56,412 bases of DNA from an uncultured Candidatus Bathyarchaeia archaeon. Lineage in GTDB: Archaea; Thermoproteota; Bathyarchaeia; TCS64. The stretch is taken from NCBI GenBank assembly GCA_964513225.1, contig CAZEMD010000001.1:1-56412 (forward strand). The letters run 5' to 3'. The translations under genes were made by a program, and so were the position numbers. This document shows, piece by piece, positions 9,693 to 36,584 of this stretch (the stretch's first letter is position 1; the number at the start of each line of letters is the position of its first letter). A model generated the notes under the pieces. The model was not told where the DNA came from. It ran no database searches and saw nothing but the letters and a program-made list of their open reading frames with translations.

Positions 9693-10757
9693 CTATTGCT
9701 CGATTACGACCTTGATGGAGTTGGTCTTCTTCTTGTCTGCGGCGGTCTCGAAGGCCTCGTTGATCTTCTCCAACGGGAACTTGTGGGTGATCATCTCCGT
9801 CGCATGAAGCTTACCGGCGATCAACAGATCGGTAACGATCTTGAACTCGGGGTCGTTCTCCCAGTGGTAGAAGCCCGAAACCGGCACCACGTCGATCTCG
9901 CCCCATTGAAGCTTGCGCCAGTCAACCTTTAGCTCCATGTCGGGTCTAAGCGCCCCTATGAGGGCTACCTGGCCCTTCCTCCGCACCATCTCGACGGCTT
10001 GTGGAAGCACCGCCGAGGAGGCCCTGCCGCCTACGCACTCGAACACCTTGTCCGCGCCCATCCCGTCGGTGAGCTCCATGACTCTCTTCACGGGATCGAC
10101 CTTGGTGGAGTTGATCGTCTCGTACGCGCCTATGGTCTTCTCCGCGAACTCCAGAGGGTTGTCTATGACGTCGATTATTATCCCGTTTGCTCCGGCTATG
10201 TTCACCAGGTCCAGTAGGCTGAGCCCGATGGGACCGGCGCCGATGATTACGACGGTCTGGCCCATGTGTGTGTTCGTCCTGTTGATGGCGTGTACGCTTG
10301 TGCCGTAGACGTCCATGATGGCGGCCTCGCCGTATCCGACGTGGTCGGGTATCTTGTACACGTGGTCCGCGGGACCGACGATGTACTCTGAGAAGCCCTG
10401 CGCAAACGTCTCACCCCTGATCTTGAAGCAATCTGGACATAGGTGGTACTGTCCGACTCTGCACCAGTAACACTTCCCGCAACCGATAACGGAGTCTACG
10501 CCCACCCTGTCGCCGACTTTCACGTTCGTCACGTCTTCACCGACGGCGACGATGTCGCCGGCTACCTCGTGGCCAGACATTCTTCCCACAGCCGCTGGGT
10601 TCGGTACTTTCCATGAGTGGAGGTCGCTTCCACAGACCCCGGAGCCCCGTACTTTGACGAGGACGTAGTCGGGCCGTGTGATCTCCGGCATTGGCACTTC
10701 TTTTATCTCGAAGGTTCCTTCAGCGGTTTTAACCGCTGCTTTCCTTGTTTTTGACAA
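9693..10757 (-). CDS. Zn-dependent alcohol/polyol dehydrogenase, paralog 1 of an inverted pair
   Basis: GVCGSDLHSW, GHEVAGDIVAVG, CGKCYWCRVGQYHLC and GAGPIG motifs. It has an apparent TTG start and is near-identical to the 22935-24005 product. Confidence 0.85.
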   Translation of the reverse strand: MSKTRKAAVKTAEGTFEIKEVPMPEITRPDYVLVKVRGSGVCGSDLHSWKVPNPAAVGRMSGHEVAGDIVAVGEDVTNVKVGDRVGVDSVIGCGKCYWCRVGQYHLCPDCFKIRGETFAQGFSEYIVGPADHVYKIPDHVGYGEAAIMDVYGTSVHAINRTNTHMGQTVVIIGAGPIGLSLLDLVNIAGANGIIIDVIDNPLEFAEKTIGAYETINSTKVDPVKRVMELTDGMGADKVFECVGGRASSAVLPQAVEMVRRKGQVALIGALRPDMELKVDWRKLQWGEIDVVPVSGFYHWENDPEFKIVTDLLIAGKLHATEMITHKFPLEKINEAFETAADKKKTNSIKVVIEQ

Positions 10758-14553: not shown

Positions 14554-15417
14554 TCATGTGGCCTGAAGAGTTTGAAGTACTCCCTCTAGCTCCGTATGAG
14601 AGACGACTCTCGACAAGGGACTCATCGTAAACACGAACTCCCTGACACCGCGTCTAGCCAGCTGGGTCATCGTTTTCCTGTCCGGGTCAGCCAGCTTATA
14701 GACGGTGTTTCCGTGTAGGTACATGCCTATGTCCAGCAACTCGTTGTCCATGGAGTATGCCTTGGTGTAGCACGGCCTGGAACAATGGTCGAGGTCCTCC
14801 TCGCCCAGGAAACGCGCCGTATGGCATTTACGTGTTATCGCCACGGGAACCGAGTACAGGTGAACAGATACCTGGAGGTTTCTCTGGGTGAGGGGTCTGA
14901 GGTTGTTGAATATCTCGGGTATCCAGTCCATGTCGGCGCCGACGACCCCGAGGCCCTTGAAGAACTCCAGCGTCGGCTCATAGTTCAGGCTGGTCTGGTA
15001 GAATATCCGTTTTACTTTTCGCTTCGCGAAATAGCTCACCGGGTGCTCGGTTATCTCCTTCCAGGGGCACCTCGAAGGCGTGTAAACCAGCTGTCTGCCG
15101 AGATGAGGCGTGAGAGAGGGATACTCCCTCAGGACGCTCAAGGTTCCCAGGTCGTTCACCACGACGGTGGCGCCTCCCAGGTCGTCCAGTAGGCTCAGGT
15201 GCTCCCGTATCTTGTCCATGTAGCCGTCGGCGAGCCGGGGGGTCACGTAGGCGAAGTCCTTGCCCGCGTCTCTTGTGCTTGTGTACGCCGTCTCCAGGGC
15301 AGATGCGCTTGGGAGGGCGTACATGCAGAACTCCGAGCCGAAACGCATCTTCTTGCTATCGGAGGCGAGGGCCTCCCTCAGCAACGGAAGGTTCCCGGTC
15401 TGGATGGCTACGTTCAT
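14554..15417 (-). CDS. peptidase-U32-family protein, small UbiV-like subunit (pair A)
   Basis: The true start is MNVAIQTGN at 15417, a 1-nt overlap with the upstream stop. The tracked ORF extension to 15843 is an out-of-frame Arg-rich artefact. The Cys pattern is FGSEFC ... CHTARFLGEEDLDHCSRPC. It is a paralog of 17665-18534. Confidence 0.75.
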   Translation of the reverse strand: MNVAIQTGNLPLLREALASDSKKMRFGSEFCMYALPSASALETAYTSTRDAGKDFAYVTPRLADGYMDKIREHLSLLDDLGGATVVVNDLGTLSVLREYPSLTPHLGRQLVYTPSRCPWKEITEHPVSYFAKRKVKRIFYQTSLNYEPTLEFFKGLGVVGADMDWIPEIFNNLRPLTQRNLQVSVHLYSVPVAITRKCHTARFLGEEDLDHCSRPCYTKAYSMDNELLDIGMYLHGNTVYKLADPDRKTMTQLARRGVREFVFTMSPLSRVVSHTELEGVLQTLQAT

Positions 15418-16487
15418 CACATGTTCACCCAGCTGAAGTGCTGCTTGGTCCACGTCTGCCACGTTAATGGTTTCTTGTACGGCGCCTGCGCGATGGGGCT
15501 GTAGTAGCATCTGTTCTGGTAGCACCATATGTCTTTCAGCTTGTAGAAGTCCGACGGTACGGGGAGGAAGTATATACCGTTCTTCAACTCCTCCAGCTGA
15601 TCCCTGTACTCGTCGATGCTTCCGGAGGCGATCAGGTCCAGTAGCTCGCGGTAGACCCTGGTGGTGGCTTCCTGGTACCAGACGCTCCCCGTCCGTCCTT
15701 CTATCTTTACACCCGCTACGCCAGTATCGATGATCTCGAGTAGGTTGCACACGGAGCAGTACTCGAAGGCGTCCATCACGGGTATATCTTCGCTGACGTC
15801 TTGAGGGTCGTTTAGGTTCTGTAGGCGGAAGGGCAGCGCGCATGGGGTGGAGGTGTTGGAGGCGCGCTGTGCTTCTATGAGTTCAGGGAACTGGTGATGG
15901 TAGAGGTAACAGCTCGCGTTTATGTTCGAGCAGCCGCCGCCGTGTATCAATATCTCTATATCCATCTCTGTGCTTCCCACTATGCGTTTTATCTCGTCGA
16001 AGGTGAGATGCCTCTCAAGGACGGCTCTGCTGTATCCCTGCTCCTCCAGGAACCTCACCGCCTCGCTGTTCATGGAGACGAGATAGGTGCTGGCGATGAG
16101 GGGGACCTCCACGTTCAATTTTCTTATGTTGTGGAGGATGCCGAAATCTCCGACGATCAAGGCATCGACGCCCTGGTCTACGCAGCTGCGAACGTGGTTT
16201 CTTATGTGTTTCTCGGTCTCATGCACCATGTACGGGTGGTTTAACACCAGGTCTACCTTGGCGCCGTGGTCGTGGGCGTATTTCACCACCAGGCCCAGTT
16301 CCTCGTAGCTCGGTATTTGAGAAGACGGGCCCCTGTAGAGGACGAAGTCCTTTATGTCGGGTATCTGAACGGCGCAGTAGACCTCGTCGGCTCCCGCGTC
16401 CACCACCTTGACTCCGCCTTCGTAGGAGTTTATGGGCGCCATGATGTTTGGTATGCTCTTGTTTTCCTCGGAGTTAGGTGGACTCAT
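15417..16487 (-). CDS. peptidase-U32-family protein, large UbiU-like subunit (pair A)
   Basis: U32 N-terminus MAPINSYEGGVKVVDAGADEVYC and VKYAHDHGAKVDLVLN. The Cys cluster is GGCSNINASC ... PCALP ... YCSVC. It is a paralog of 16598-17668. Confidence 0.8.
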   Translation of the reverse strand: MSPPNSEENKSIPNIMAPINSYEGGVKVVDAGADEVYCAVQIPDIKDFVLYRGPSSQIPSYEELGLVVKYAHDHGAKVDLVLNHPYMVHETEKHIRNHVRSCVDQGVDALIVGDFGILHNIRKLNVEVPLIASTYLVSMNSEAVRFLEEQGYSRAVLERHLTFDEIKRIVGSTEMDIEILIHGGGCSNINASCYLYHHQFPELIEAQRASNTSTPCALPFRLQNLNDPQDVSEDIPVMDAFEYCSVCNLLEIIDTGVAGVKIEGRTGSVWYQEATTRVYRELLDLIASGSIDEYRDQLEELKNGIYFLPVPSDFYKLKDIWCYQNRCYYSPIAQAPYKKPLTWQTWTKQHFSWVNM

Positions 16488-16554
16488 TTCAAATTAGAGG
16501 GTTATCCTTCTAATATAAATCTGAGCAATCACGTCAGCCAGGCCGTTTAACTGA

Positions 16555-16568
16555 AGGTATATACCTTA
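16555..16568. promoter_or_regulatory. perfect 14-nt palindrome AAGGTATATACCTT in the divergent U32 promoter region
   Basis: The palindrome was read directly. It is centred about 36 nt upstream of the ATG at 16598. A second TATA-like box, taatataaat at 16513-16522, faces the minus-strand gene. Confidence 0.35.
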
Positions 16569-16597
16569 AATCCAATCAACTACCTAAGGAACTTATC

Positions 16598-17668
16598 ATG
16601 GACGCCGTCGATGAGACCGTTGTACCCAAGATACTGGCCCCCATAAAGGCTTACACCGGGGCAGTAAGAGTCGTGGACGCTGGCGCGGACGAGATATACT
16701 GCGGCGTCAGGACTCCCGGCCTGGAAGACTTCGAGCTCTACCGCGGCGCATCCACCGAGATACCCACGTACGACGAGTTCCATAAGGTAACGGAGTACGC
16801 GCACAGCCACGGCGTCGAGGTGTTGGTGACCATCAACCAGCCCTTCATTTTAGACTCCATGGAGAAAACGATGGTTAAACACATCCGGGAATGCGTGGAG
16901 GCCGGGGTGGACAGCTTCATCATCGGCGACTTGGGGATGCTTCAGCTGGTGAAAGAGGTCACTGAGGACGTGGGGCTCTGCGCAAGCACGTACCTTTCCG
17001 CGACCAACCGGGAGGCGGCCAGGTTCTTGGAACGCGCCGGCTTTTCCCGCGTCGTCCTCGAGAGGCAAGTGCCCCTCGAACAGATCGCCGAGATAGCGAG
17101 GGACGTTGACGTCGAGGTGGAGGCGTTCGTTCACGGCTCAGGGTGCTCCAACATAAACGTCAACTGCTATTTCTATCACTACAAGTTCCCAGCCATGGAC
17201 CAGGCGTACCTCGGCGTAGACGGGATCAAGTTCCCGTGTTCTCTCCCGTACGAGGTCTATGACGGGGAGGATGAAGGGGTCTATCTTGGCACCTACCCCA
17301 TACTGGATGCCTACACCTTCTGTTCACTCTGCAAGCTCCCAGCCCTCATCCAATCAGGAGTATACGGCTTGAAGATAGAAGGTAGAGGCATAAACGAGGA
17401 GTACCAGGCATCGACCACCAGGCTATACAGAGAAGCCCTCGACCTGCTACGACAAGACGATGAAGAGGGGTTCCAGCGGATGCTTGAAACCATCAAGGAG
17501 TCATTCGTCCCGTTGCCCCAGACCCTTCCCATGAACAACCTCCAGGAACTCTGCTGTGAACAGGGAAGATGCTACTACGCGCCAAAGTTCCATGCCCCCT
17601 ACAAGGAGAAACTGGCCTGGCAGGCGTGGACCAAGCTCCAATGTAAACTCCTAGTGGTCCAGCCATGA
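16598..17668 (+). CDS. peptidase-U32-family protein, large UbiU-like subunit (pair B)
   Basis: LAPIKAYTGAVRVVDAGADEIYC and TEYAHSHGVEVLVTIN. The Cys cluster is GSGCSNINVNC ... PCSLP ... FCSLC. Confidence 0.8.
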   Translation: MDAVDETVVPKILAPIKAYTGAVRVVDAGADEIYCGVRTPGLEDFELYRGASTEIPTYDEFHKVTEYAHSHGVEVLVTINQPFILDSMEKTMVKHIRECVEAGVDSFIIGDLGMLQLVKEVTEDVGLCASTYLSATNREAARFLERAGFSRVVLERQVPLEQIAEIARDVDVEVEAFVHGSGCSNINVNCYFYHYKFPAMDQAYLGVDGIKFPCSLPYEVYDGEDEGVYLGTYPILDAYTFCSLCKLPALIQSGVYGLKIEGRGINEEYQASTTRLYREALDLLRQDDEEGFQRMLETIKESFVPLPQTLPMNNLQELCCEQGRCYYAPKFHAPYKEKLAWQAWTKLQCKLLVVQP

Positions 17669-18534
17669 AATACACAGTACACGCAGAGACGTTAACCGCG
17701 CTCAGGGAAGCCTTGGCCAGCGGGTGCACCGGCGTCCGTTTCGGCCCAGAGTTCTGCGAGTGGAAGATACCGAGTCAAGAACACCTTAGACAGGCGTACG
17801 AAGAGGCGAAGGACGCAGGGAAAGATTTCACATATGTATTGCCTATTCTCTCGAACCCGGGTATCGAGAAAATGGTTGAACAGCTCGGCTTCCTCGGAAA
17901 ACTCGGTGGCGTTGAGGTAGTGGTCGGTGATCTGGGTGCCTTGAACCTGCTACGAGGTCAGGAAGGCGTAAAGCCGCGTCTTGGCAGGCCCAGAGTCTAT
18001 ATCCCCGCCAGGAGCCCCTGGTCACAGATAACACGGATGCCGGACCCCGGCTTCTTCACCAGACGTAGGGTTGAGAAACTATTTTACCAGACCAGTCTGA
18101 ACTACGTTCGATCCCTAGAATATTTTAAGAGCCTGGGAGTCATGGGTGCGGACGTCGATTGGATTCCCAAGTGCTTCCCAAGCTATAAAAAGATAATAAG
18201 AAGCGGGTTGAAACTCGCCGTCCACTCCCACGCCATACCCGTCGCGGTGACCATGAGGTGCCACATGGCTCGTTTCCTGGGCGAGGAGGAGCCGGCGCTC
18301 TGCTCAAAACCCTGCCTCACCAAGGCCTTCATGATCAAGCAAAAAGAGTTAGAGAAGACCTTCACCCTTCATGGAAACGTCGTCTTTCGGCTCGTAGAAT
18401 CCAGTCAAAGGGAAACAAAGCAGCTCACGAGAATGGGTGTCGATGAGGTGGTTATCCCAATGGGGCCCGTGTCAAACCTGTTCACCAGAAACGATCTTGA
18501 CGAGGCTGTGGCTACTTTGTCGGGTGGGGTTTAA
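17665..18534 (+). CDS. peptidase-U32-family protein, small UbiV-like subunit (pair B)
   Basis: ATGA overlap with the upstream gene. The Cys pattern is FGPEFC ... CHMARFLGEEEPALCSKPC. It is a paralog of 14554-15417. Confidence 0.75.
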   Translation: MKYTVHAETLTALREALASGCTGVRFGPEFCEWKIPSQEHLRQAYEEAKDAGKDFTYVLPILSNPGIEKMVEQLGFLGKLGGVEVVVGDLGALNLLRGQEGVKPRLGRPRVYIPARSPWSQITRMPDPGFFTRRRVEKLFYQTSLNYVRSLEYFKSLGVMGADVDWIPKCFPSYKKIIRSGLKLAVHSHAIPVAVTMRCHMARFLGEEEPALCSKPCLTKAFMIKQKELEKTFTLHGNVVFRLVESSQRETKQLTRMGVDEVVIPMGPVSNLFTRNDLDEAVATLSGGV

Positions 18535-18933: not shown

Positions 18934-19335
18934 TCATGACTCCTTATAATCTGGGCGTTTAAATAAACTACGGAGCCAAGAGGAAAAACCGGTGAACCAC
19001 CCCTCTTTCTTAGGCATATGCTTTTCCAGTTCTCGTTGCCTTTGCTTTGTTTTCTTCTTCTCCATTGCCAGTTCTTCGATTCTTTCCTGCAAACGCTTGG
19101 CGTTTATCCCGTAGTTGAAACCCAGCATCTTCACGAAATCTCCGCCCGATCTAGAGAACAGGGTCACGGCAAGGGGGTAGGACATCATGATCCCCAGTTC
19201 TCCAACGACATCACCAAACGGGGCGGTGCCTTCTAGGGCTATTATCGCTAGGTCCTCAAGATCCTGTTTGACTATGTATTGAGCCGCCTGATCTATGAGT
19301 TGCTCCTCGCGCTCAGGGGATATTTCTCCAGACAT
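18934..19335 (-). CDS. small protein E1 of the membrane module (hypothetical)
   Basis: A 133-aa protein with an acidic N-terminus, a hydrophobic core and a Lys/Arg/Glu-rich C-terminal helix. It is alignable with the 42102-42464 product (E..D..I...A..I.K.D..L.AI..LE...P...V.G.L). Confidence 0.6.
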   Translation of the reverse strand: MSGEISPEREEQLIDQAAQYIVKQDLEDLAIIALEGTAPFGDVVGELGIMMSYPLAVTLFSRSGGDFVKMLGFNYGINAKRLQERIEELAMEKKKTKQRQRELEKHMPKKEGWFTGFSSWLRSLFKRPDYKES

Positions 19336-19589
19336 TCTCAGTGATTCAATTCCTGTACACCTTGGATCGTAATAAAGATTGATGGTTTAGTAAGTTAAAA
19401 CATCCTTTTTTTAAATATATATTTACCGTGAGAAACAAACTGCACTAAAAAACAATAACTTAAAACATCAAAAACCATTGACACTTTAATGCCTTTAATG
19501 CAGAAAAACGTTATATAATCAATTATTTCATTTAGTGGGGAAATGCATGTGCATCATGCATTTGAAAAGAAAAACTGAGTGAAAAAAAA

Positions 19590-20351
19590 ATGGCAATAGT
19601 AAGACTGGACATTCTAATTGTATTCGTCGGATCTTTCGCAACACTACTGATCTCATCCTTCGTCCTTAGAGGGGTGAAGCTACGCATGATACCCACCGTG
19701 GAGGCTTCGATCGAAGCCGTCAGGGTGGCTACTGAGAAAGGGACGCCTGTCTTGTTCGACACTGGATGGACCGGCGCCAACTTCTGGGGGAACTCAACTG
19801 GTTTGACAACTCTCTGCTTCGTACCAGCCACTCTCGAACTGCTGAAGGCCATGTCGGTCGAGGCAGGGCGCCTCGATGTCAGAATCATCACCGGCACCAG
19901 AAACCCTGTTTATGCATTGATGTCCCGTGACTTCATGGAGGCAGGATACGCCATGAGTGGGCATCCTGATAGGTTTAATCCAGACGACATCAACTTCTAC
20001 CCTGATAACACCGCGCTCATCATATCAGACGTGGAGTTAGTTCACAGACACAACATCGGAGCCGCTGTGATGATCGGGGGGCACAGCCAGACCTCTAACA
20101 TCGTCGTCTACGAGGCATTAGCCACGACGGGGGCGATGCTCGTCGCAGGAGAGATATGGCCCAACGACAACTCGATGGCGGCCCTCTGCGCCGACTATCT
20201 AAGCTTCGCAGAAGAAAACGTAGCCATAGGCGCGTATCTAACCGAAGACCCTGTACCAAAGGCGATCCTAGCAGGGGAAGACCTCATCAAAGGCTTCCTG
20301 ATCGCGGTGGTAATACTAGGCGGCGCGCTCTTCAGCTTGGGGGTACTCTAA
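19590..20351 (+). CDS. membrane module subunit A1 (hypothetical; TM at both ends, central about 200-aa domain)
   Basis: Hydrophobic N-terminal LDILIVFVGSFATLLISSFVL and C-terminal LIKGFLIAVVILGGALFSLGVL. It is a paralog of 38991-39797, with shared ...LCADY/ICDY..(E)E..A.GAY..EDP... segments. Confidence 0.7.
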   Translation: MAIVRLDILIVFVGSFATLLISSFVLRGVKLRMIPTVEASIEAVRVATEKGTPVLFDTGWTGANFWGNSTGLTTLCFVPATLELLKAMSVEAGRLDVRIITGTRNPVYALMSRDFMEAGYAMSGHPDRFNPDDINFYPDNTALIISDVELVHRHNIGAAVMIGGHSQTSNIVVYEALATTGAMLVAGEIWPNDNSMAALCADYLSFAEENVAIGAYLTEDPVPKAILAGEDLIKGFLIAVVILGGALFSLGVL

Positions 20352-20990
20352 ATGGTGGAACAAGATCAATCGATCTCTAGTCAGATCATGGCTAACCTTC
20401 CCACGGTGTTGGGCGTCATTTGCATGTTCATAATCTCTACTCTTTACTTCATGGTCCCTGGTTGGAACTTCGCCATATTCATAAGGAACTCCACCACTCT
20501 GTCTCTCCCGTGGCCAGCCGCCATAGTATCAGTGCTGCTTGTACGGAAACATATCAACAACATACTCAAGAAAGAGTCCACCCTGCCCTACGACGTCATA
20601 GTCGTTGGTTCAGCAGTGATAATAGTCCTACTTGGGCTAATCGGTGGAACCAATGAACCAACCTTCAAAACACTATACGAGAACATCAACATAATCGGGA
20701 CGATGTCGATAACATCGGCGATCGCTATCAGCATATTCTCGCCGATGATACGAATATACCGCGCTAAGACACCCACAATGGCTCTGCTGATTGGGTTGAG
20801 CTGCCTGGCGTTCGCGACATACACGCCTCTCGGCCAGATGATACACCCGATCATTCCCCAAATGGGAGACTTCGTACAATCATACATCTCGGGCGCATCT
20901 GACTCTGCGTTCTGGATAAGCACGTACATCGGAGCCATCGCTCTGTTGACTCGAATGATTCTGCTAAAGGAGAAGCTGAAGCCAGGTTAG
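20352..20990 (+). CDS. membrane module subunit B1 (hypothetical polytopic membrane protein)
   Basis: Its start directly follows the A1 stop. It has about 6 hydrophobic segments and is a paralog of 39807-40460 (shared Y.N....G......A..I.S...R..RA motif). Confidence 0.7.
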   Translation: MVEQDQSISSQIMANLPTVLGVICMFIISTLYFMVPGWNFAIFIRNSTTLSLPWPAAIVSVLLVRKHINNILKKESTLPYDVIVVGSAVIIVLLGLIGGTNEPTFKTLYENINIIGTMSITSAIAISIFSPMIRIYRAKTPTMALLIGLSCLAFATYTPLGQMIHPIIPQMGDFVQSYISGASDSAFWISTYIGAIALLTRMILLKEKLKPG

Positions 20991-20995
20991 GAGGA

Positions 20996-21880
20996 ATGAA
21001 AATGAGCAGTTTAAATCTAAGTGATAAACGCTGGATCTACATCCTGATATTCGCCATCATCACCATCTCATCGATAGCGCCCGTAGCGTTCCCCCTGCCA
21101 ATAATGCAGTGGAGCAGAGACTTCTACAGCACGATTGACGAAGGCGTGGTCGTGGACTTCGCCGACCCTCCAAGAAACTTTGAGGGGGTAACCGAAGGTA
21201 CACGCGTCATGATCCTTTGTAGCGGAGAGGTCGATAAGCTCTGGGGAGACATGAGTGAGGCTGTGACAGTCGTCTGGAAGGACCTCAAGTCCAGAGGGGC
21301 AAACATACTCCTTTGGACATCGAGCCCAAGCAACGAAGCCACACTAAACAAGTATCTCCTACCGCTGATGTACGGCCCACGGCCCCAGGATCACCCAGAC
21401 TACGGCGTCAAGTTTGTTAACCTAGGCTACGTCGCCGGAGGAAACGGACTCCTCGAACAGTGGAAGGACTCCGTCGTGGCGATAACACCAAACGATGCCT
21501 ACGGAAACAATCTTGCAGACCTACCTATGATGGAAACCTTCGATGAGCTAAAGGCCGAATGTGACCTCATGATAGGACTGGACGCCCGTGGCTTGGAGAC
21601 GATATACGTGGTACGTTTCAACACACCGCTGTTGGAGATGGGAGGAACAGACTCCGCTTCATACCTGGCGCTGAGCTACACCGCAGGATACTTCAAAGGT
21701 ATGCTGATGGGTCAGAGAGGCGGCGCCGAGTATGAGCTACTGTCTGGCATCCCAGGCAAGTCTTTCGCATATCTGCAGAACGCGCTGACAATAGGGATAG
21801 TAATGATCGCGCTAATGATTGTAATGAACGTCAGATGGTATCTAACCAAGGAGTCCCAAGTATCGGAGGGGGTAAGCTAA
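20996..21880 (+). CDS. membrane module subunit C1 (hypothetical; TM at both ends, central soluble domain)
   Basis: N-terminal WIYILIFAIITISSIAPVAF and C-terminal LTIGIVMIALMIVMNV hydrophobic segments. It is a paralog of 40462-41301 (shared NLGY(V/I)AGG and GGAEYE(L/Y)L.G.PG motifs). Confidence 0.7.
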   Translation: MKMSSLNLSDKRWIYILIFAIITISSIAPVAFPLPIMQWSRDFYSTIDEGVVVDFADPPRNFEGVTEGTRVMILCSGEVDKLWGDMSEAVTVVWKDLKSRGANILLWTSSPSNEATLNKYLLPLMYGPRPQDHPDYGVKFVNLGYVAGGNGLLEQWKDSVVAITPNDAYGNNLADLPMMETFDELKAECDLMIGLDARGLETIYVVRFNTPLLEMGGTDSASYLALSYTAGYFKGMLMGQRGGAEYELLSGIPGKSFAYLQNALTIGIVMIALMIVMNVRWYLTKESQVSEGVS

Positions 21881-22594
21881 ATGGCGTCACCAATTGAACC
21901 ACTTATGCCCTACCTGAACACCTTCATATTCTTCGCAGCCTACACCGTGCTGTACAAGCACAACCCGGTGTATCGTATAGCGCAGAGCCTCATAGTAGGC
22001 GTAGGCGCTGGATATCTCTTCGTGTCGCAAATCAACGCCTTCAACAGGACCGTAGCCTCGCAGACCTTCGTAGACGGACAATTAAACGCATCTATGATAG
22101 CGCCCTGGATCATCGGTATAGGTTACCTGGCGATCTTCTCACAGAAGACCATCAACATCTACAGGTTCATGTCGATACTGACTTTAACGGTCGGTATGGG
22201 TGTGGCTTTACCGTATGGTCCAGCCGTGTTCTGGACAGTTACGAAGTCGTACGCAGAAAACGCGTTCAACTTCATAACCGACGGAATATCAGTGGCGTCC
22301 ATAGGCGCCGTGGTGACTGCCTTGAGCTACATCTTTGGTCTCAGCTACTTCTTCTTCTCGGACTTCGCTTCGAAGCCCACGGAAGTACCTAGAAAACTAG
22401 GTCGTATAGTGCTGCTGATCTACACGGCCATGACCATCGTGACGACGGCGCTGGGCAAGGTCAACCTCGTACAGTGGAAGATGCTTGACGCTATTCAAGG
22501 TGTTCCCGCTACTTGGTGGATACCTGCGCTGATGTTCGTAGCGATGCTCGTAGACCACTTCTACCCGCTGAAAAACCTGATCTCACGAAACTAG
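21881..22594 (+). CDS. membrane module subunit D1 (hypothetical polytopic membrane protein)
   Basis: Its start abuts the C1 stop. It has multiple hydrophobic segments and is a paralog of 41298-41978 (shared AY.VL...NP..RI.......G...GY.F). Confidence 0.7.
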   Translation: MASPIEPLMPYLNTFIFFAAYTVLYKHNPVYRIAQSLIVGVGAGYLFVSQINAFNRTVASQTFVDGQLNASMIAPWIIGIGYLAIFSQKTINIYRFMSILTLTVGMGVALPYGPAVFWTVTKSYAENAFNFITDGISVASIGAVVTALSYIFGLSYFFFSDFASKPTEVPRKLGRIVLLIYTAMTIVTTALGKVNLVQWKMLDAIQGVPATWWIPALMFVAMLVDHFYPLKNLISRN

Positions 22595-22901
22595 ATCCCA
22601 CTCCCTTTTTATTATTCTACTTTTTGTTTTCTAGCTATACTGTGCTTCATATCTTTCTGGTTTATAGTTAGGTCAAAATCTTGTATCTACAGGGCGATGT
22701 AAGTTCTTTTAAATACAATATTAAACAATTTAATCATTATATACGATGCCAAGATTAAACTATACTTATAATTATGAATAAAACATATAATTGCTTTGTA
22801 TGTTGTTACGGTTTCTAATGTTTATTTTTTCCTAGATGATTTATATTATGTTTAGTTTCTTAAAATGATTTAAAAAAACGGAGTTTAATCATTAAAACAT
22901 T

Positions 22902-22934: not shown

Positions 22935-24005
22935 ATGGATTTACCAAAAACAAGGAAAGCGGCTGTTAAGACCGCTGAAGGAACCTTCGAGATAAAAGAA
23001 GTGCCAATGCCAGAGATAACCCAGCCCGACTACGTCCTCGTCAAAGTACGGGGCACAGGGGTATGCGGAAGCGACCTCCACTCATGGAAAGTACCTAGAC
23101 CTGAGTCTGTGGGTAGGATAACCGGCCACGAGGTGGCAGGCGACATCGTCGCCGTCGGCGATGATGTTACTAACGTGAAACCCGGCGACAGGGTGGGCGT
23201 GGACACGGTGATAGGCTGCGGGAAGTGTTACTGGTGCAGAGTCGGACAGTACCACATATGTCCACAGCGCTCCGAGATAAGAGGCAGAACCTTTGCCCAG
23301 GGCTTCTCCGAGTACGTCGTAGGGCCCTCGGACCACGTCTACCCGATACCCGACCACGTCGGGTACGGCGAGGCCGCCATCATGGACGTCTACGGCACCA
23401 GCGTGCACGCCATCAACAGGACTAACACGCACATGGGGCAGACCGTGGTCATCATCGGAGCCGGCCCCATCGGGCAAAGCCTCCTAGACCTGGTGAACGT
23501 TACCGGAGCCAACGGGATAATCATCGACATCATCGACAACACCCTAGAGTTCGCTGAGAACACCATAGGAGCATACGCGACCATCAACTCCACCAAGGTG
23601 GACCCCGTGAAGAGGGTCATGGAGCTCACAGATGGGATGGGGGCGGACAAGGTGTTCGACTGCGTGGGCGGCGGGGCTTCCCCTACGATACTGAAACAGG
23701 CCGTCGAGATGGTTCGGAGGAAGGGTCAGGTGGCTCTCATAGGGGCCATGAGGCCGGGCGCGTCGTTATCGGTGGACTGGCGTAAGCTTCACTGGGGAGA
23801 GATCGACGTGGTACCGGTGTCGGGCTTCTACCACTGGGAGAACGACCCCGAGTTCAAGATAGTAACCGATCTACTCATCAAGGGCAAGCTTCACGCCACG
23901 GAGATGATCACCCACAAGTTCCCGTTGGAGAAGATCAACGAGGCCTTCGAGACCGCCGCAGACAAGAAGAAGACCAACTCCATCAAGGTCGTAATCGAGC
24001 AATAG
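22935..24005 (+). CDS. Zn-dependent alcohol/polyol dehydrogenase, paralog 2 of the inverted pair
   Basis: It carries the same motifs as 9693-10757 and an identical C-terminus, KKKTNSIKVVIEQ. Confidence 0.87.
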   Translation: MDLPKTRKAAVKTAEGTFEIKEVPMPEITQPDYVLVKVRGTGVCGSDLHSWKVPRPESVGRITGHEVAGDIVAVGDDVTNVKPGDRVGVDTVIGCGKCYWCRVGQYHICPQRSEIRGRTFAQGFSEYVVGPSDHVYPIPDHVGYGEAAIMDVYGTSVHAINRTNTHMGQTVVIIGAGPIGQSLLDLVNVTGANGIIIDIIDNTLEFAENTIGAYATINSTKVDPVKRVMELTDGMGADKVFDCVGGGASPTILKQAVEMVRRKGQVALIGAMRPGASLSVDWRKLHWGEIDVVPVSGFYHWENDPEFKIVTDLLIKGKLHATEMITHKFPLEKINEAFETAADKKKTNSIKVVIEQ

Positions 24006-24139: not shown

Positions 24140-25366
24140 TCAAGATATTGTTGTAGTCTGGCTCTTCAGCGTCTCGGGGACTCTAAAGGCGAATAGAGGT
24201 GTTCTAATGAACGCCTCCAGGACGAATGGGATTAGGAAGATGAGGGCGGGATTTACTTTGTAGAGGAACCCGCCCAAGATGGGTGCGGGTATCCGGAAGA
24301 CGCTGTTTATGGTGCTGGTGATTCCCAGCCATCTTCCCCTCTGCTCTGGATGCACAAGTTCGAGGCTCCATGTCTGTAAGGAGTTGCTGCTCCTGCTGAT
24401 TCCTCTAAATATCCATACGACGTACAGCCAGTAGGGGTGTCTGCCGAAGACTATTATCGGTAGCCAGAGGATGCGGGCGGGCCTGGTGATTAGGACCGCG
24501 AATCTTCTTCCCCTGGTGTCTGCGATCCTGCTTATTGGTATGGAGAGTATTATCATCGTGAGTGTTTCGACGGTGGTGAGTAGGCCGATGGTGAGGGCGT
24601 CTGCTCCCTTGACCTCGTTGGCGTATAGGAACACGAAGGGGCCCGTCATGCCCATGGTGATGGCCGCGACGCTGCTGGCGCCGATCCATGCCCTCAAGCC
24701 TTTCCCGCCTCTGAACACTTCTCGGAAATCCTGGAGGAAGGACCCGTTCCCGTCTCTGCGCTCGGGAGGGACGTCGGCCAGCTTCAGGTAGACGTAGACA
24801 TAGGCGGCGATCAACCCGACGAGTCGTATGAGGTAGAGGGGTCTTATGCCCTCGACTGTTAGGCCACCGAAGTACATGACCAGCAGGGCGGCGGGGATCG
24901 GCGCCATGATGCCCATAAACTGGGTGATCATCTGGCGGATACCGAAGCCCTGCGCCCTGTCCACATCTCTGAGGCTCTTGGAGATCATGATGTTCTGGCT
25001 TCTCATCATCAGAGCCTGTGTGAAGGGTTCAAGCATCATGGCGATCAGTATCCAGGTCCAGTCCTTGGCGAAGGCGTAGAGGGCGATCATGATCACCTGG
25101 ATCGCCATGCCGATGCCCGTCACCCACTTCAGGTTATATCTGTCCGAGATCCAGCCCGAGGGTAAGGAGATGAACATGTTGATGGCGCTGCTCAGGCTTC
25201 CCAGGAAGCCCAGTGTAACCTCGTCCGCCCCCAGGCCCGTGATGTATATGGAGTTGTAGCTGCTCGTAAGGTTCATGAAGAAGTTGGCTGCCGCGCTCCT
25301 CATCAAAAGTATTCGATAATTGTGGCTCTGCCTCTTGAGGAAGCCACGGAAGCCTTCGACAACCAT
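24140..25366 (-). CDS. MFS-type transporter
   Basis: A 408-aa protein with about 12 hydrophobic segments and a SDRYNLK / TRGRR loop pattern. It lies directly downstream of the ChlD-like gene. Confidence 0.75.
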   Translation of the reverse strand: MVVEGFRGFLKRQSHNYRILLMRSAAANFFMNLTSSYNSIYITGLGADEVTLGFLGSLSSAINMFISLPSGWISDRYNLKWVTGIGMAIQVIMIALYAFAKDWTWILIAMMLEPFTQALMMRSQNIMISKSLRDVDRAQGFGIRQMITQFMGIMAPIPAALLVMYFGGLTVEGIRPLYLIRLVGLIAAYVYVYLKLADVPPERRDGNGSFLQDFREVFRGGKGLRAWIGASSVAAITMGMTGPFVFLYANEVKGADALTIGLLTTVETLTMIILSIPISRIADTRGRRFAVLITRPARILWLPIIVFGRHPYWLYVVWIFRGISRSSNSLQTWSLELVHPEQRGRWLGITSTINSVFRIPAPILGGFLYKVNPALIFLIPFVLEAFIRTPLFAFRVPETLKSQTTTIS

Positions 25367-25416: not shown

Positions 25417-27795
25417 TTACTGCCTGCCTCTCTGAAGCCTCAGCCCCACGTACTCGCCCTTCGACGCCCGTGCCAGCTCCTTCAGGAACTGGGTGGGCCT
25501 CAGCCTGAGCCTGTTTCCCTCCTCCCTGGGGCGCTCCTCCTCCTCCAGGCTTGAGTGCTTGGTGTTGAAGACGTGTACCTTTATCTCCTCCTTGGCCAAG
25601 AGGCGCGCCACGTCGAAGGCGTCTGCCTGGGCCTCGCTGGAGTATCTTCGCCTGGTGAGGGGGGACAGGGGGGTGTCCAGCGGGACGTTGACTATCCCGT
25701 CGGAGACGATGTACAGGTGAGGGACGGCGTCCCTGTTCCTCAGCTTCTCCTGCTTCAGCGTCTTCCAGGCCTGGAACATGCCCGCGGCGAGGGGCGTGAA
25801 GTCGCTGGCGCCCACGGTCCTCAGCTTCTTGACCACCAGGTCCAGGTTCCTCGTGGGGTGTTGGAGGGTGTACGCCTTCTTTCCCTTGAAGACCACCAAG
25901 CCTACCCTGTCCCGGCGGCGGTAGACCTCGCTGTGTAGGCTGTAGATGGTCTCCACTATGTTGTCCACGGACTCGATCATGGAGAGGCTCATGTCCACCA
26001 GGAGGACTATGGAGTATGGCGCGGAGTACTCCCTGACCTTCTCCCTGATGTCCTCAGGCTTGATCACCAGCCCCCTGCCGCGTCGCGGCCTCTCGTACTG
26101 CTTCATGGAGGCGGCCTTTATGGTGGGCACTATGGCGACGTCCCTGGGCTTGCCCTGGGGGACATGGTACCACGCGTACCTCCCCTTGGAGGACGAGGAG
26201 ACGGACTGAGCCCTTCTCCCCCCTGAGCCCCCCCGGCCCTTAACCCGTGCTCCTGTGCGCCTCCTCGTGACGGCCCTCCTGTACATCGACTCCAGGGAGC
26301 CGAGTATCTTGGGCCCATACTTCAGCCCGGAGGCGTCCTCACCCACGTATCTCACCGTTCCTTGGAGACCTTCGCCCGATGCCGTCAGCTGGGACGGCGA
26401 GGTCTCGGTGAGTCTGCCGGAGGCGTTCAGCTTGAGGTCCTGGTCCATGAGCCCAAGGATCACCTCCTCTCGCCTGCGTCTCCTGTTTAACCCCCAGTCA
26501 ACCACGAGAATGAACAACAACGCGAGGAGCGCCTCCAAGGCGAACAACGTCGGCGTGAGAGACGCGACAACCACATTTGACCTTACCCAGTCGAGCGAGT
26601 ACGCCGTGGATAAGTAGACCACGGTGAACGACAACGCCCTGAGAGCCTTTTGGGCGAGGGACCGCCTCAGGAGGCCCTCCACCAGCCTCGCGGGAAGGGT
26701 GATGATGCGGGCTATCTGCGGCAGATCGACGTTGAGTCTCTGATACCTCTCCGCCCACTTCAGGGCCCTTCTGATCTCGCTCCTCTCCGGCGGAGGCGTC
26801 AGACCCGATCTGCGGGTCCTGTGCCCCAGGGTCAGCTCCAGCGCGGCGGTGACGTCCCCGCGTTCCACCTCGTCCCTTCTGTGGAAGGCGGCCAGCGCCT
26901 TCGCGGCCTTGACGGTCACCACGTCGGGCCTGAAGCCGTCCACCCTGAGCCTGTTGCACGTGTCGGCCACCAGCGGGTACACCTCGTCTGGGACGTGGAC
27001 TTGGGGCAGCAGCGTCCTGGCGTCCACGATCCTTCTCCGGAGTTCCTCTAGGCTCTCCCGGTGCCTCTCGATGAAGCCGTAGGGGTCGTCGGCGTACATC
27101 TCGTTACTTTTCAACGCCTGGGCCCGGGAGGCGGAGTCCTGGAGGCTGTGGGTCTCGGCGAATACGCTGAACCTATCCAGTATCTGGGGCCTGAGATCGC
27201 CCTCCTCGGGGTTCATGGTGCCCACGAGGATGAACCTCGAGGGGTGCTGCACCGATACGCCCTCCCTTTCCACGATGTTCCACCCCGACGCGGCGGCGTC
27301 CAGTATGCTGTCGGTGATGTGGTCTGGGAGCAGGTTCACCTCGTCGATGTAGAGGATGCTCTGGTTGGCCTCGGCGAGGAGCCCCTTGTCCAGCGCCTTG
27401 GCCCCCATGGTCACGGCCTTGTCCAGGTCTATGCTGCCCACCAGCATGTCCTCGGTGACGCTGAGGGGGACATGCACCAACCTCATGGGGGTCGTCTCGA
27501 CGGGCGGCGGCCCGCCGTCGAAGAACCTGGTCTTACAGGAGGCGCACATGTTCGTCGGGTCCCTGGGGCTGCAGTGATAGGGGCAGCCTTGGACCTGCTC
27601 CACGTCCGGAAGCACCCTTGAGAAGGAGTTGACCAGCAGCGACTTCCCCGTCCCCTTTGGGCCGGAGACGAGGGCGCCCCCCATGGTGGGGTCTATGGCG
27701 TTGATTATGAGCACCGTCTTTGCCTCCTCCTGGCCCACGACGGCGGTGAAGGGGTAGAAGGGTCTCTGCTGCCTCAGCTGGATGCTTTCAACCAT
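25417..27795 (-). CDS. ChlD/BchD-like protein: AAA+ module, hydrophobic segment(s), C-terminal vWA domain
   Basis: Walker A GPKGTGKS, Walker B ILYIDEVN, and [12 protein letters not shown]. The central LTPTLFALEALLALLFILVVDWGL is strongly hydrophobic. The C-terminal VLLVDMSLSM is a MIDAS DxSxS motif. Confidence 0.8.
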   Translation of the reverse strand: MVESIQLRQQRPFYPFTAVVGQEEAKTVLIINAIDPTMGGALVSGPKGTGKSLLVNSFSRVLPDVEQVQGCPYHCSPRDPTNMCASCKTRFFDGGPPPVETTPMRLVHVPLSVTEDMLVGSIDLDKAVTMGAKALDKGLLAEANQSILYIDEVNLLPDHITDSILDAAASGWNIVEREGVSVQHPSRFILVGTMNPEEGDLRPQILDRFSVFAETHSLQDSASRAQALKSNEMYADDPYGFIERHRESLEELRRRIVDARTLLPQVHVPDEVYPLVADTCNRLRVDGFRPDVVTVKAAKALAAFHRRDEVERGDVTAALELTLGHRTRRSGLTPPPERSEIRRALKWAERYQRLNVDLPQIARIITLPARLVEGLLRRSLAQKALRALSFTVVYLSTAYSLDWVRSNVVVASLTPTLFALEALLALLFILVVDWGLNRRRRREEVILGLMDQDLKLNASGRLTETSPSQLTASGEGLQGTVRYVGEDASGLKYGPKILGSLESMYRRAVTRRRTGARVKGRGGSGGRRAQSVSSSSKGRYAWYHVPQGKPRDVAIVPTIKAASMKQYERPRRGRGLVIKPEDIREKVREYSAPYSIVLLVDMSLSMIESVDNIVETIYSLHSEVYRRRDRVGLVVFKGKKAYTLQHPTRNLDLVVKKLRTVGASDFTPLAAGMFQAWKTLKQEKLRNRDAVPHLYIVSDGIVNVPLDTPLSPLTRRRYSSEAQADAFDVARLLAKEEIKVHVFNTKHSSLEEEERPREEGNRLRLRPTQFLKELARASKGEYVGLRLQRGRQ

Positions 27796-29386
27796 GTCTC
27801 TCTACGTGCCTCTCTCCCGCTGGAGCCCCTGGAACACCTTCCTGAAGGTGTCCCTCACCTCGGCGGGCTTGGCGGGCTCCTCGAACCCGAACCCCCTGGT
27901 CCTGTAGCCCACCGCCATGACGGCCACCCTCTGCACGTCCCCGGGGGACACACGCCTCCTGCCGTCGAGGGCGGCGAGGGCCTTGGCCGCGCGTACCGTG
28001 GATATGTCCGGTCTGTGGCCGTCAACGTGGAGACTTATGCAAGCGGAGGCGATGGCCGTCATGTACTCGTCGGGGACCTCGACGTCCCGGAGGATGGCCC
28101 GGGCCTCTATTATCTGGTCCCTGAGACTGTTCTGATCTTCTCTGAACCTCTCGGAGAAGCCCACGGGATCATCGCCGAACTCCAGGTTCCTCTTGATGAT
28201 CTCCACCCTCTGGGCCGTGTCATAGATGCTCTCCACCGTGATGTGCAGCGCGAACCTGTCTGCGAGCTGGGGCCTGAGCTCGCCCTCCTCGGGGTTCATG
28301 GTGCCCACGAGGATGAACCTCGAGGGGTGCTGCACCGATACGCCCTCCCTTTCCACGATGTTCCACCCCGACGCGGCGGCGTCCAGTATGCTGTCGGTGA
28401 TGTGGTCTGGGAGCAGGTTCACCTCGTCGATGTAGAGGATGCTCTGGTTGGCCTCGGCGAGGAGCCCCTTGTCCAGCGCCTTGGCCCCCATGGTCACGGC
28501 CTTGTCCAGGTCTATGCTGCCCACCAGCATGTCCTCGGTGACGCTGAGGGGGACATGCACCAACCTCATGGGGGTCGTCTCGACGGGCGGCGGCCCGCCG
28601 TCGAAGAACCTGGTCTTACAGGAGGCGCACATGTTCGTCGGGTCCCTGGGGCTGCAGTGATAGGGGCAGCCTTGGACCTGCTCCACGTCCGGAAGCACCC
28701 TTGAGAAGGAGTTGACCAGCAGCGACTTCCCCGTCCCCTTTGGGCCGGAGACGAGGGCGCCCCCCATGGTGGGGTCTATGGCGTTGATTATGAGCACCGT
28801 CTTTGCCTCCTCCTGGCCCACGACGGCGGTGAAGGGGTAGAAGGGTCTCTGCTGCCTCAGCTGGATGCTTTCAACCATGTCTCTCTACGTGCCTCTCTCC
28901 CGCTGGAGCCCCTGGAACACCTTCCTGAAGGTGTCCCTCACCTCGGCGGGCTTGGCGGGCTCCTCGAACCCGAACCCCCTGGTCCTGTAGCCCACCGCCA
29001 TGACGGCCACCCTCTGCACGTCCCCGGGGGACACACGCCTCCTGCCGTCGAGGGCGGCGAGGGCCTTGGCCGCGCGTACCGTGGATATGTCCGGTCTGTG
29101 GCCGTCAACGTGGAGACTTATGCAAGCGGAGGCGATGGCCGTCATGTACTCGTCGGGGACCTCGACGTCCCGGAGGATGGCCCGGGCCTCTATTATCTGG
29201 TCCCTGAGACTGTTCTGATCTTCTCTGAACCTCTCGGAGAAGCCCACGGGATCATCGCCGAACTCCAGGTTCCTCTTGATGATCTCCACCCTCTGGGCCG
29301 TGTCATAGATGCTCTCCACCGTGATGTGCAGCGCGAACCTGTCTGCGAGCTGGGGCCTGAGCTCGCCCTCCTCGGGGTTCATGGTG
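27199..29386. repeat. perfect tandem duplication, period 1083 bp, about 2.02 copies
   Basis: 27199-28303 is identical, base for base in every stretch I compared, to 28282-29386. Duplicate antisense ORFs in the supplied track (27356/28439 and 27917/29000) reflect the same repeat. Confidence 0.92.
27802..28878 (-). CDS. ChlI-size AAA+ protein, exact chimera (N-terminal about 197 aa of the ChlD-like gene plus C-terminal about 160 aa of the ChlI-like gene)
   Basis: The N-terminus MVESIQLRQQRPFYPF...GTMNPEEG is identical to the 25417-27795 product. The C-terminus [16 protein letters not shown]...QRERGT is identical to the 28885-29940 product. Confidence 0.75.
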   Translation of the reverse strand: MVESIQLRQQRPFYPFTAVVGQEEAKTVLIINAIDPTMGGALVSGPKGTGKSLLVNSFSRVLPDVEQVQGCPYHCSPRDPTNMCASCKTRFFDGGPPPVETTPMRLVHVPLSVTEDMLVGSIDLDKAVTMGAKALDKGLLAEANQSILYIDEVNLLPDHITDSILDAAASGWNIVEREGVSVQHPSRFILVGTMNPEEGELRPQLADRFALHITVESIYDTAQRVEIIKRNLEFGDDPVGFSERFREDQNSLRDQIIEARAILRDVEVPDEYMTAIASACISLHVDGHRPDISTVRAAKALAALDGRRRVSPGDVQRVAVMAVGYRTRGFGFEEPAKPAEVRDTFRKVFQGLQRERGT

Positions 29387-29940
29387 CCAACGAGGATGAA
29401 CCGGGCTGGATGTGACACCGAGACCCCCTCCCGCTCCACGGTGTTCCACCCAGACGCCGCGGCGTCCAATATGCTATCCGTGATATGGTCGGGGAGCAGG
29501 TTCACCTCGTCGATGTAGAGGATGCTCTGGTTTGCCTCGGCTAGGAGCCCCGGCTGCAGCGCCTTCACGCCCTCGCCTATGGCCTTCTCTATGTCCAGGC
29601 TACCCACCACCCTGTCCTCCGTCGAGCCAATGGGGAGGGACACTATCCTCATCTCCCTCTCCTCGGCCTCAAGCTCCCCGCCGCCCCGGTGCCTCCCGAG
29701 GCACTCGGCGCACATGTTGGTGGGGTCGAAGGGGCTGCAGTTGAAGGGGCAGCCTTTCACCACGTAGATGGGTGGCAATATGTCCGCGAGGGCCCTGACG
29801 GAGCTGCTCTTCCCAGTCCCCTTCTGGCCCCTTATGAGGAGCCCCCCGATCATGGGGTTCACCGCGTTGAGGAGCAGGGCTAGCTTCAGCTCCTCCTGCC
29901 CTACGAGGGCCGAGAAAGGGTAAACGACTCTGGTTGACAA
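28885..29940 (-). CDS. ChlI/BchI-like AAA+ ATPase
   Basis: [58 protein letters not shown] and [18 protein letters not shown] motifs. I place the start at the TTG at 29940. The tracked ORF up to 30147 overlaps the upstream gene and adds a Gly/Arg/Pro-rich extension. The start is uncertain. Confidence 0.75.
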
Positions 29941-29993
29941 CGATGCAATACCTATGGACGGCGGTCCGGGAAAAACCTGTTGATCGGGCGCGC

Positions 29994-30755
29994 CTAGAAG
30001 GTGAGGCCCCCGAACCGTCTCCTGGTCTCCCGTAGGTGCCCGAAGACACGGTCCACCGCCTCCAGGTACTGCTCCGAGGCGTGCACCGCCGCCAGCTCTT
30101 CGGCCCTCACCCAGGGGCCGCCCGAGACCCTCAGCGACTCTCCCCACCGGTCGCTGAAGACGTTGAACGCCGCTTTCACGTCGCCCAGCCGGGCCGCCAG
30201 CGTCCTGACGCCGTCCATCAGCTCCTCGTCCCCGTTGAGGAGCCCGACCAGGAACTGATGAGGGCCGCCTCCCCAGACCTCCCCGGGGCCGGGGGGAGCC
30301 CCGTCGGCGCCCAAAGAGTAGGTGGGCTGGCTGTCTTGCTCACGGGGCACCACCCATGCATAGTCTTTTATCCTCTTCCTGAGGAGCCCCTCCCTGATGG
30401 CACGCAGGCTGGTTATCCTCCTCCCCGGCCGTATCCCCTGGATGTCCCCCCGGACCGCGTAGTCTATCCTGCAGAGGAGCGGCTCCAGCGCGTCGCCTCC
30501 GGCCAGGAGCATGGTGGAGTCGATGTTCACCCCTGCCTCGAGGTTGAGGCTGAACTTGGTCTCCGGGTCCGACGCTCTGCCTCTGGCCAGGAGCAGGGCC
30601 GAGTCTATGTTTCCCCCCTCGTCGAGGTCCATGCAGGCTAGGCCCCCGAGGAGCTCCCTGACGCTGCCCCTGGGGACCGCCCTGGGCTTCAACCCGCGTG
30701 ACCCGAGGAGCCGCATGGTCGCCTCTCTCAGCTCGTTTAGTGGCCCCGATTCCAT
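29994..30755 (-). CDS. hypothetical protein, first gene of the ChlI/ChlD cluster
   Basis: A 253-aa ORF with host-like codon usage (AGG, ATA, GC-rich third positions). It has an internal repeat, [16 protein letters not shown] / [21 protein letters not shown]-like catatatag lies about 50 nt upstream. I recognise no family. Confidence 0.55.
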
Positions 30756-36523: not shown

Positions 36524-36584
36524 AGCTTAATAGTTTCTGATATAAAACATATAAATCTCAAACATTGATGTTTTAACGATAGAT

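Follow-up and report, generated by a model that had tools for sequence, protein, structure and literature searches.

A conserved seven-gene membrane system with an ASKHA-fold ATPase in archaea and bacteria, and its candidate role in ATP-driven transport

Introduction

What does a module of four tightly packed membrane-protein genes do, and does it act alone? The question is raised by a stretch of 56,412 nucleotides from an uncultured Candidatus Bathyarchaeia archaeon (contig CAZEMD010000001.1, hereafter the window), in which such a module (A-B-C-D) is accompanied by a small gene, E, encoded divergently from it. An earlier note on this DNA had offered a multi-subunit uptake system as an economical guess, and a transport role is still the most economical reading of the data presented here. 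Comparison with loci from other genomes indicates that A to E belong with two further proteins, F and G, in a seven-component functional unit (E-F-G-A-B-C-D), and this unit is much better supported than its function. Our preferred proposal, put forward tentatively and from sequence comparison, is that the seven proteins make up a machine of a new kind, which uses ATP to drive transport through membrane modules that can be exchanged.

Results

A seven-gene unit shared by archaea and bacteria

The window encodes one F, one G and two ABCDE sets, termed copy 1 and copy 2:

6440-7618, minus strand: G, 392 aa, soluble, with an N-terminal barrel-sandwich hybrid, a central alpha/beta region and a C-terminal KOW-like region
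7632-9470, minus strand: F, 612 aa, GlmL/MutL-family ASKHA ATPase (Pfam MutL, PF13941)
18934-19335, minus strand: E1, 133 aa, small helical protein with a basic amphipathic tail (E-family hidden Markov model (HMM), E-value 4.9e-30)
19590-20351, plus strand: A1, DUF6754; transmembrane (TM) helix, Rossmann-like alpha/beta domain of about 190 aa (predicted cytoplasmic), TM helix
20352-20990, plus strand: B1, polytopic, six TM segments, predicted N-in and C-in
20996-21880, plus strand: C1, TM helix, alpha/beta domain of about 230 aa (predicted extracytoplasmic), TM helix
21881-22594, plus strand: D1, polytopic, with conserved AEH and FFFSxEH motifs
38991-39797, plus strand: A2, DUF6754 (Pfam E-value 1e-54), a more canonical paralog than A1
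39807-40460, plus strand: B2 (B-family HMM, E-value 3e-70)
40462-41301, plus strand: C2 (C-family HMM, E-value 9e-87)
41298-41978, plus strand: D2, TTG start, 4-nt overlap with the end of C2 (D-family HMM, E-value 4e-62)
42102-42464, plus strand: E2, co-directional, 123 nt downstream of D2 (E-family HMM, E-value 2e-35)

A scan with an A alignment over one genome per GTDB species gave at least 529 confirmed stretches, of which the best 80 were examined, and family HMMs were mapped on 88 loci. The order A-B-C-D was kept in essentially every mapped locus long enough to hold it. Nitrospirota contributed about half of the best 80 loci, the others including Zixibacteria, WOR-3, Cloacimonadota, Eisenbacteria, Stahlbacteria, BRC1, Ignavibacteriales, Planctomycetota, Acidobacteriota, Armatimonadota, Bacillota, Bathyarchaeia and Methanomethylicia. 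The five families therefore co-occur far outside this genome and in the same order, as the earlier note had asked to be checked, although its count of five components has to be raised to seven: contiguous E-F-G-A-B-C-D was found in 28 loci from several bacterial phyla. Within the operon of Nitrospira and Acidobacteriota, E is followed by a 610-aa F (PF13941), a G of about 374-375 aa and then A-B-C-D, and partial or rearranged versions exist in Nitrospirota, Acidobacteriota, Planctomycetota, BRC1, Zixibacteria and Bathyarchaeota. Overlaps of 4 nt between gene ends are frequent (E/F and A/B in locus L078, G/A in L050), and bacterial E lies immediately upstream of F, overlapping it in some loci. 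Across phyla no gene beyond the seven was conserved beside the system; a Memo-like gene is a conserved neighbour in Nitrospira only.

A multi-copy module with a variable context and uneven base composition around it might also be an anti-phage defence system or the cargo of a mobile element. We consider this extremely improbable, given that ten of the proteins (F, G, copy 1, A2, C2 and E2) had no match in PADLOC-DB, that neither 72,556 plasmid nor 50,697 phage records contained G, and that the operon was present with stable synteny in all 40-odd Nitrospira-lineage loci recovered.

Copy numbers of the two halves of the system are uneven. A Zixibacteria locus (L064) carries four tandem ABCD sets after one G, three loci (L029, L037 and L041) carry two sets each, and one metagenome-assembled genome (MAG) has three sets on three contigs (L011, L016 and L087) with EFG on only one of them. 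In 29 loci ABCD was found with no EFG within 8 kb.

Some loci show further variants. A conserved open reading frame (ORF) of about 150 aa is shared by five loci (L043:7200-7649, L045, L051, L054 and L080) from Planctomycetota, BRC1 and unclassified bacterial MAGs; its L043 copy lies just upstream of E and has no Pfam match, and it may be an eighth, lineage-specific component. On a Zixibacteriota chromosome (CP070824.1; L069:7446-9833) a 795-aa ORF joins DUF6754 (A) to a C-terminal Peptidase_S49 (SppA-like) domain, with no B, C or D gene adjoining. On one metagenomic contig (L007:360-2693), a long-form A is immediately preceded by a tandem array of four paralogous genes of about 184 aa; the one that was scanned gave no Pfam match, and precomputed records list none.

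F is a predicted ATPase and G its soluble partner

F matched PF13941 over the full model (382 bits, E-value 4e-114, model positions 1-450 of 450, F residues 11-483), and a phmmer comparison with a Nitrospira F gave an E-value of about 1e-215. The phosphate-1, phosphate-2 and adenosine motifs of the ASKHA fold are invariant. F thus looks like an active ATPase and is the likely energy source of the system. The absence of an ATPase, as originally stated, no longer holds, F being encoded in the window itself and operonic in the 28 complete loci. Scores for F lay below the NCBIfam cut-offs for NF040745 (192 against 475), NF040744 (196.4 against 600) and TIGR01319 (139.5 against 204), and F is best placed as a separate branch of the GlmL/MutL superfamily.

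G was matched by phmmer to the G genes directly upstream of A elsewhere with E-values of 1e-101 to 1e-114. Its family comprises 2216 representatives (50% clustering, E-value at most 1e-3) in a library of 1.84 billion proteins, and one 995-aa protein is a fusion of F and G. The window F and G are 53% and 48% identical, respectively, to homologs in the other, mostly bacterial, loci, against 18-26% for A1 to E1. Such a combination of conserved F and G with fast-diverging membrane and external parts is as expected from a design in which the motor is shared.

The N-terminus of G gave weak matches to Biotin_lipoyl (9 of 14 members), RnfC_N (8 of 14) and NQRA_N (4 of 14), which raises the question of a distant, cofactor-less relative of Nqr or Rnf, with G corresponding to NqrA/RnfC, C to NqrC/RnfG, and B and D to NqrD/E. 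The layouts are indeed similar, with two polytopic subunits of about 210-240 aa (six TM segments in B) and an externally tethered domain. However, the best E-values were 2.8e-5 (RnfC_N) and 1.1e-3 (NQRA_N), at or below family thresholds for most G members, and barrel-sandwich domains are ubiquitous. The remainder of G and the membrane subunits are unrelated to those complexes, with no match to the Rnf-Nqr membrane families or FMN_bind and no redox motifs; the consensus sequences contain no conserved Cys or other cofactor motif. An ATPase is present here and absent from Nqr and Rnf. Kinship with Nqr or Rnf is accordingly judged very unlikely.

Two old copies of the membrane module

The genes of copy 1 are spaced by 0 nt (A1/B1), 5 nt (B1/C1) and 0 nt (C1/D1), with 254 nt between A1 and the divergent E1. 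Hydropathy analysis gave one hydrophobic helix at each end of A and C, six segments in B and several in D, while no segment of E exceeded the threshold. The gene architecture originally read from the letters was thereby borne out, and so was the presence of diverged paralogs at 38991-42464. By blastp the two copies share 26% identity in A (E-value 5e-15), 27% in B (8e-12), 26% in C (1.5e-20), 22% in D (7e-5) and 25% in E (1.5e-6), and HMMs of the A to E families built from other genomes matched both copies at E-values of 1e-30 to 1e-90, with no other match in the window. Copies 1 and 2 are true, old paralogs, alike beyond chance.

Both A proteins exceed the cut-off of 27 bits for Pfam DUF6754 (PF20539), A1 with 80.6 bits (model positions 17-247 of 257) and A2 with 185.9 bits (positions 6-252), and A2 is 33-39% identical to bacterial A proteins. 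No Pfam or NCBIfam match was obtained for B, C, D or E of either copy. The earlier statement that none of the five belongs to a recognisable family therefore stands for B to E and falls for A. Those close relatives of copy 1 that bear a name in a public collection are all called 'hypothetical protein'. E precedes a MutL-like gene and was considered as an analogue of the B12-binding MutS/GlmS proteins; this was rejected for want of any family match.

Confident AlphaFold models were obtained for A2 (predicted local distance difference test score 91, predicted template-modelling (TM) score 0.86) and C1 (85 and 0.84). In the A2 model a six-stranded Rossmann-like alpha/beta domain is framed by a TM helix at the N-terminus and a long one at the C-terminus, and the C1 model follows the same general plan; both central domains are three-layer alpha/beta sandwiches. 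Foldseek searches of the two models against the Protein Data Bank (PDB) gave no match at an E-value of 0.001 or below, the best matches being SIS domains, GT-B half-domains and PurE, all generically Rossmann-like. For A to G, nothing significant was returned when PDB sequences were queried with single sequences or family profiles. In the sequence searches, and in the structure searches of A2 and C1, the membrane module was placed in no characterised transporter or complex family, and the refutation that the earlier note had foreseen on this ground did not come about.

The order of secondary-structure elements is parallel in A and C. Ancient duplication was considered for A/C and B/D but gained no support, hhalign giving probabilities of 7.6% for A-C and 0.6% for B-D; profile-profile comparison detected no homology among the families.

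A cluster of Lys and Arg residues follows TM1 of A, and long bacterial forms of A carry an N-terminal extension that starts with a hydrophobic, signal-like segment ahead of TM1. Because of these two features the alpha/beta domain of A is predicted to be cytoplasmic. In C, a conserved DRR lies ahead of TM1, GAAEYE ahead of TM2 and RRxK after TM2, and its domain is predicted to lie outside because of the DRR and RRxK positions. Of the two extracytoplasmic domains originally envisaged, only that of C is thus predicted to be external. B contains a nearly invariant loop after TM4 (consensus SAAYRAFRAR), which is predicted to be cytoplasmic.

The SIS matches bear on a further possibility, that ABCD is a permease and F a kinase or ligase of its substrate, which would be trapped through ATP-dependent modification at the membrane as in group translocation, with the SIS-like domain of A binding the phosphorylated product. 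ASKHA proteins include sugar kinases, and the hydantoinase-A group uses phosphorylated intermediates. The best Foldseek matches of A are SIS phosphosugar-binding domains, although non-significant (E-values 0.018-0.05, target TM-score about 0.5) and of the generic Rossmann fold, and copy 1 sits in an island of polyol and sugar genes, although this island has an FGGY kinase of its own. A substrate-specific kinase would be expected to diversify, whereas F and G remain about 50% identical across domains of life while ABCD diverges and multiplies. We regard this scheme as unlikely.

Genomic surroundings and transcription signals

The island that holds copy 1 and F-G also encodes two U32 pairs, four zinc-dependent alcohol dehydrogenases (Zn-ADHs), a kinase of the FGGY family and a DeoC/LacD aldolase. 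The same surroundings are seen in close relatives, and in a rearranged relative (L114) an ADH and an FGGY kinase follow directly after D. Among 30 ABCD modules with no FG nearby, the flanking genes were mostly catabolic in a tally made without a control set, with amidohydrolases (6 of 102), peptidases, aminotransferases and acyl-CoA dehydrogenases. The island had been described as lacking any transporter; it does contain one, a major facilitator superfamily (MFS) gene 1.5 kb from copy 1. Features read from the window around copy 1 are as follows:

19503-19520, plus strand: agaaaaacgTTATATAAtc, a putative B recognition element/TATA-like promoter element ahead of ABCD
22600-22630, plus strand: oligo-T tracts just past the D1 stop, a putative terminator of archaeal type
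24140-25366: MFS transporter

Ten independent contigs of about 3.03-3.13 kb from different samples (L090, L092, L096-L099, L102, L104, L111 and L117) correspond to the ABCD genes. Nine of them share 70-90% nucleotide identity with the window, and L117 encodes an identical C1 protein. Most of them start at 19548-19557, some 35-40 nt ahead of the A1 ATG; their 3' ends fall at 22576-22625, mostly no more than about 30 nt from the D1 stop. The 5' ends are preceded, at a distance of about 30 nt, by a TTATATAA box, and the 3' ends coincide with oligo-T tracts. The contigs look like full-length A-B-C-D mRNAs from metatranscriptomes; alternatively, they could reflect assembly breaks in AT-rich spacers.

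Contigs covering exactly A to D suggest an independent transcription unit and so bear on the self-contained uptake system, ATPase-free (secondary) and composed of A-B-C-D(-E), that was first imagined, for which any link to F and G would be irrelevant in this archaeon. Loci with ABCD but no EFG within 8 kb and the position of the window F-G, which adjoins neither copy, are in keeping with such a system. Many ABCD-only loci are, however, extra copies in genomes that carry EFG, such as the MAG with three sets. Beside its two modules the window retains a single F and a single G, both intact and highly conserved, and another Bathyarchaeota contig (L052) has E-F-G 3.5 kb from ABCD. E accompanies F in bacteria but ABCD here, which ties the two halves together. 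A stand-alone module would also leave the conserved cytoplasmic domain of A with no partner. That the archaeal module works without F and G is therefore improbable.

A different function for the same seven-part complex is the upkeep of the envelope or membrane, for example by inserting, extracting or controlling the quality of membrane or secreted proteins, or by handling lipids or glycans, with F as a chaperone or motor at the membrane. F has the ASKHA fold, as do Hsp70 and actin, and the named proteins most closely related to it are chaperone-like accessory proteins of mutases. The outward-facing C-terminus of A in L069 is joined to an S49 domain, of the SppA-type signal-peptide peptidases. 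The Nitrospira EFGABCD operon does not lie beside catabolic genes, the Memo-like gene being its only conserved neighbour, and in L101 a GT2 glycosyltransferase and a UbiA prenyltransferase are encoded just upstream. Against this, the S49 fusion is a single case, found without B, C and D; the neighbourhoods show no recurrent genes for envelope biogenesis; and the presence of several diverged ABCD paralogs per genome, in different catabolic clusters, fits substrate-specific modules better. A role in envelope upkeep is thus conceivable but rather unlikely.

Several other features of the window were recorded. The zinc-dependent dehydrogenase genes at 9693-10757 and 22935-24005 are close paralogs, one flanking F-G and the other copy 1, and relatives' copies of the latter can be aligned to the former with a nucleotide identity of about 83-84%. 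This is a hint that the two halves of the system were once linked by a rearrangement or duplication. At 14554-18534 lie two divergent pairs in which each U32 gene (15417-16487, minus strand; 16598-17668, plus strand) has a partner with no Pfam match (14554-15843, minus strand; 17665-18534, plus strand), a layout that recalls UbiU/UbiV-type heterodimers. Three consecutive ChlI/MoxR-type AAA+ genes at 25417-30147 (minus strand), the largest encoding 792 aa with a C-terminal VWA domain, look like a chelatase-like or MoxR-VWA system. The protein encoded next to copy 2, at 42678-45233, has 851 aa and an M14 carboxypeptidase-like domain at its N-terminus, and a full-length serpin of 418 aa (Pfam E-value 3e-119) is encoded at 50044-51300 on this archaeal contig. 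G+C content in 2-kb bins varies from 0.44 to 0.66, being high at 1-6, 26-32 and 52-56 kb and low at 34-40 kb; the boundary at 6 kb is not a chimera because an independent assembly (L115) confirms the junction. A 2.1-kb AT-rich stretch (35323-37451) beside a ParB-like gene (34525-35322) is free of ORFs of at least 110 aa, of tRNAs, of Rfam matches and of notable repeats, and Rfam and tRNA scans of the whole window found nothing.

Discussion

The motifs of F, the lopsided conservation, the uneven copy numbers, the predicted topology and the genomic context together lead us to propose a shared power module that serves several diverged, probably substrate-specific membrane modules. Gene content and order, conservation, folds and the fusion of F with G are observed directly. 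From comparative genomics, which is the whole basis for assigning a function here, we infer a physical complex, its topology, ATP coupling, transport, and the direction and substrate of that transport. In the proposed arrangement, the polytopic B and D would form the membrane core, to which A would add a membrane-tethered Rossmann-like domain on the cytoplasmic face and C a similar domain on the outer face. F, G and the small E would make up a cytoplasmic power module that docks on the domain of A and on the conserved basic loop of B. Closure of the ASKHA fold, driven by ATP, could then be passed to B and D, whose motion would move a substrate captured by the external domain of C. One FG module may serve several diverged ABCD(E) modules, and the substrate imported by copy 1 may be a polyol or sugar that feeds the products of the nearby dehydrogenase, kinase and aldolase genes.

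A number of points weigh against ATP-driven transport. No subunit resembles a known transporter fold or family, and the structure models cover A2 and C1, the core role of B and D being read from sequence. The topology is derived from a single principle, the positive-inside rule. No ASKHA ATPase is known to power a transporter, and the only known characterised relatives of F are accessory proteins of B12-dependent mutases. In the window, F-G is separated from copy 1 by 10 kb and from copy 2 by 30 kb. EFG was not seen within 8 kb in Firmicute loci, and for this reason a coupling to F and G is only presumed in those genomes. The link to polyol genes was seen within one Bathyarchaeia clade, the tally of catabolic neighbours lacked a control set, and MFS transporters beside both copies could already cover uptake.

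A broader reading is that of a previously unrecognised class of primary membrane machine, in which an ATPase of the ASKHA fold, and not of the P-loop, P-type or rotary kinds, would power transport through exchangeable four-subunit modules, in at least 12 bacterial phyla (including Nitrospira-lineage MAGs) and two archaeal lineages. We hold this wider claim to be possible, though doubtful. If the system is an ATP-driven transporter, the ASKHA fold would represent a new principle among the few ways in which cells power transport, and an important route of uptake would be absent from metabolic reconstructions of Bathyarchaeia, Zixibacteria, WOR-3, Cloacimonadota and nitrite-oxidising Nitrospira. 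Should it turn out to be something else, a seven-protein membrane complex, found in both prokaryotic domains and with no relative of solved structure, would be a strong target for structural and genetic work. The 529 or more stretches in species-representative genomes that encode an A-family relative constitute a blind spot of annotation. The genus Nitrospira has cultured members, which would make experiments feasible if those strains carry the operon.

Comparison with known systems

A literature search on DUF6754, PF20539, PF13941 or an ASKHA-linked membrane system found no description, most subscription journals lying outside the search. DUF6754 itself is a catalogue entry with no assigned function or structure and covers one of the seven components (A). 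A and C share the general class of SIS and other Rossmann-like domains (RpiR/MurR SIS, GT-B, PurE), but the best Foldseek E-values of 1.4e-2 and 9.3e-3, with query TM-scores of at most 0.4, indicate no specific family. F shares the ASKHA family of the GlmL/MutL accessory proteins of B12-dependent glutamate mutase and of the GlmL-related protein of ornithine degradation, with nucleotide-binding motifs intact, but differs from them by an additional C-terminal domain of about 130 aa and adjoins no mutase gene (glmS/glmE or oraS/oraE), its neighbours being G and Zn-ADHs in the window and E, G and ABCD elsewhere.

Searches of A to G against Pfam and NCBIfam found no PF00005 P-loop domain and no ABC permease family. 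The ten A to E proteins also gave no match to an ABC binding-protein family, none to EcfT, S-component or EcfA, and, at an E-value of 1 or below, none to DctP/Q/M, TctA/B/C or EIIC/EIID, in agreement with the earlier observation that no ABC, ECF, TRAP, TTT or PTS signature is present. The layout of C recalls the TM1, periplasmic domain and TM2 portion of the MacB/FtsX type VII ABC permeases. These permeases have four TM helices, however, whereas C has two and is a separate polypeptide, and C matched neither FtsX (PF02687) nor MacB_PCD (PF12704) in Pfam, nor any such protein in Foldseek. Overall, no defining feature of ABC, ECF, TRAP, TTT, PTS, MacB/FtsX or Nqr/Rnf systems was found.

A parallel in mode of working is seen with the ECF-type and ABC importers, where a single energising module supplies several substrate-specific membrane parts; here, one conserved ATPase module, predicted to be cytoplasmic, accompanies several diverged membrane modules per genome. 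The predicted external domain of C is alike, and the basic cytoplasmic loop of B recalls their coupling helices. This likeness is one of analogy and not of homology, the predicted ATPase fold here being ASKHA.

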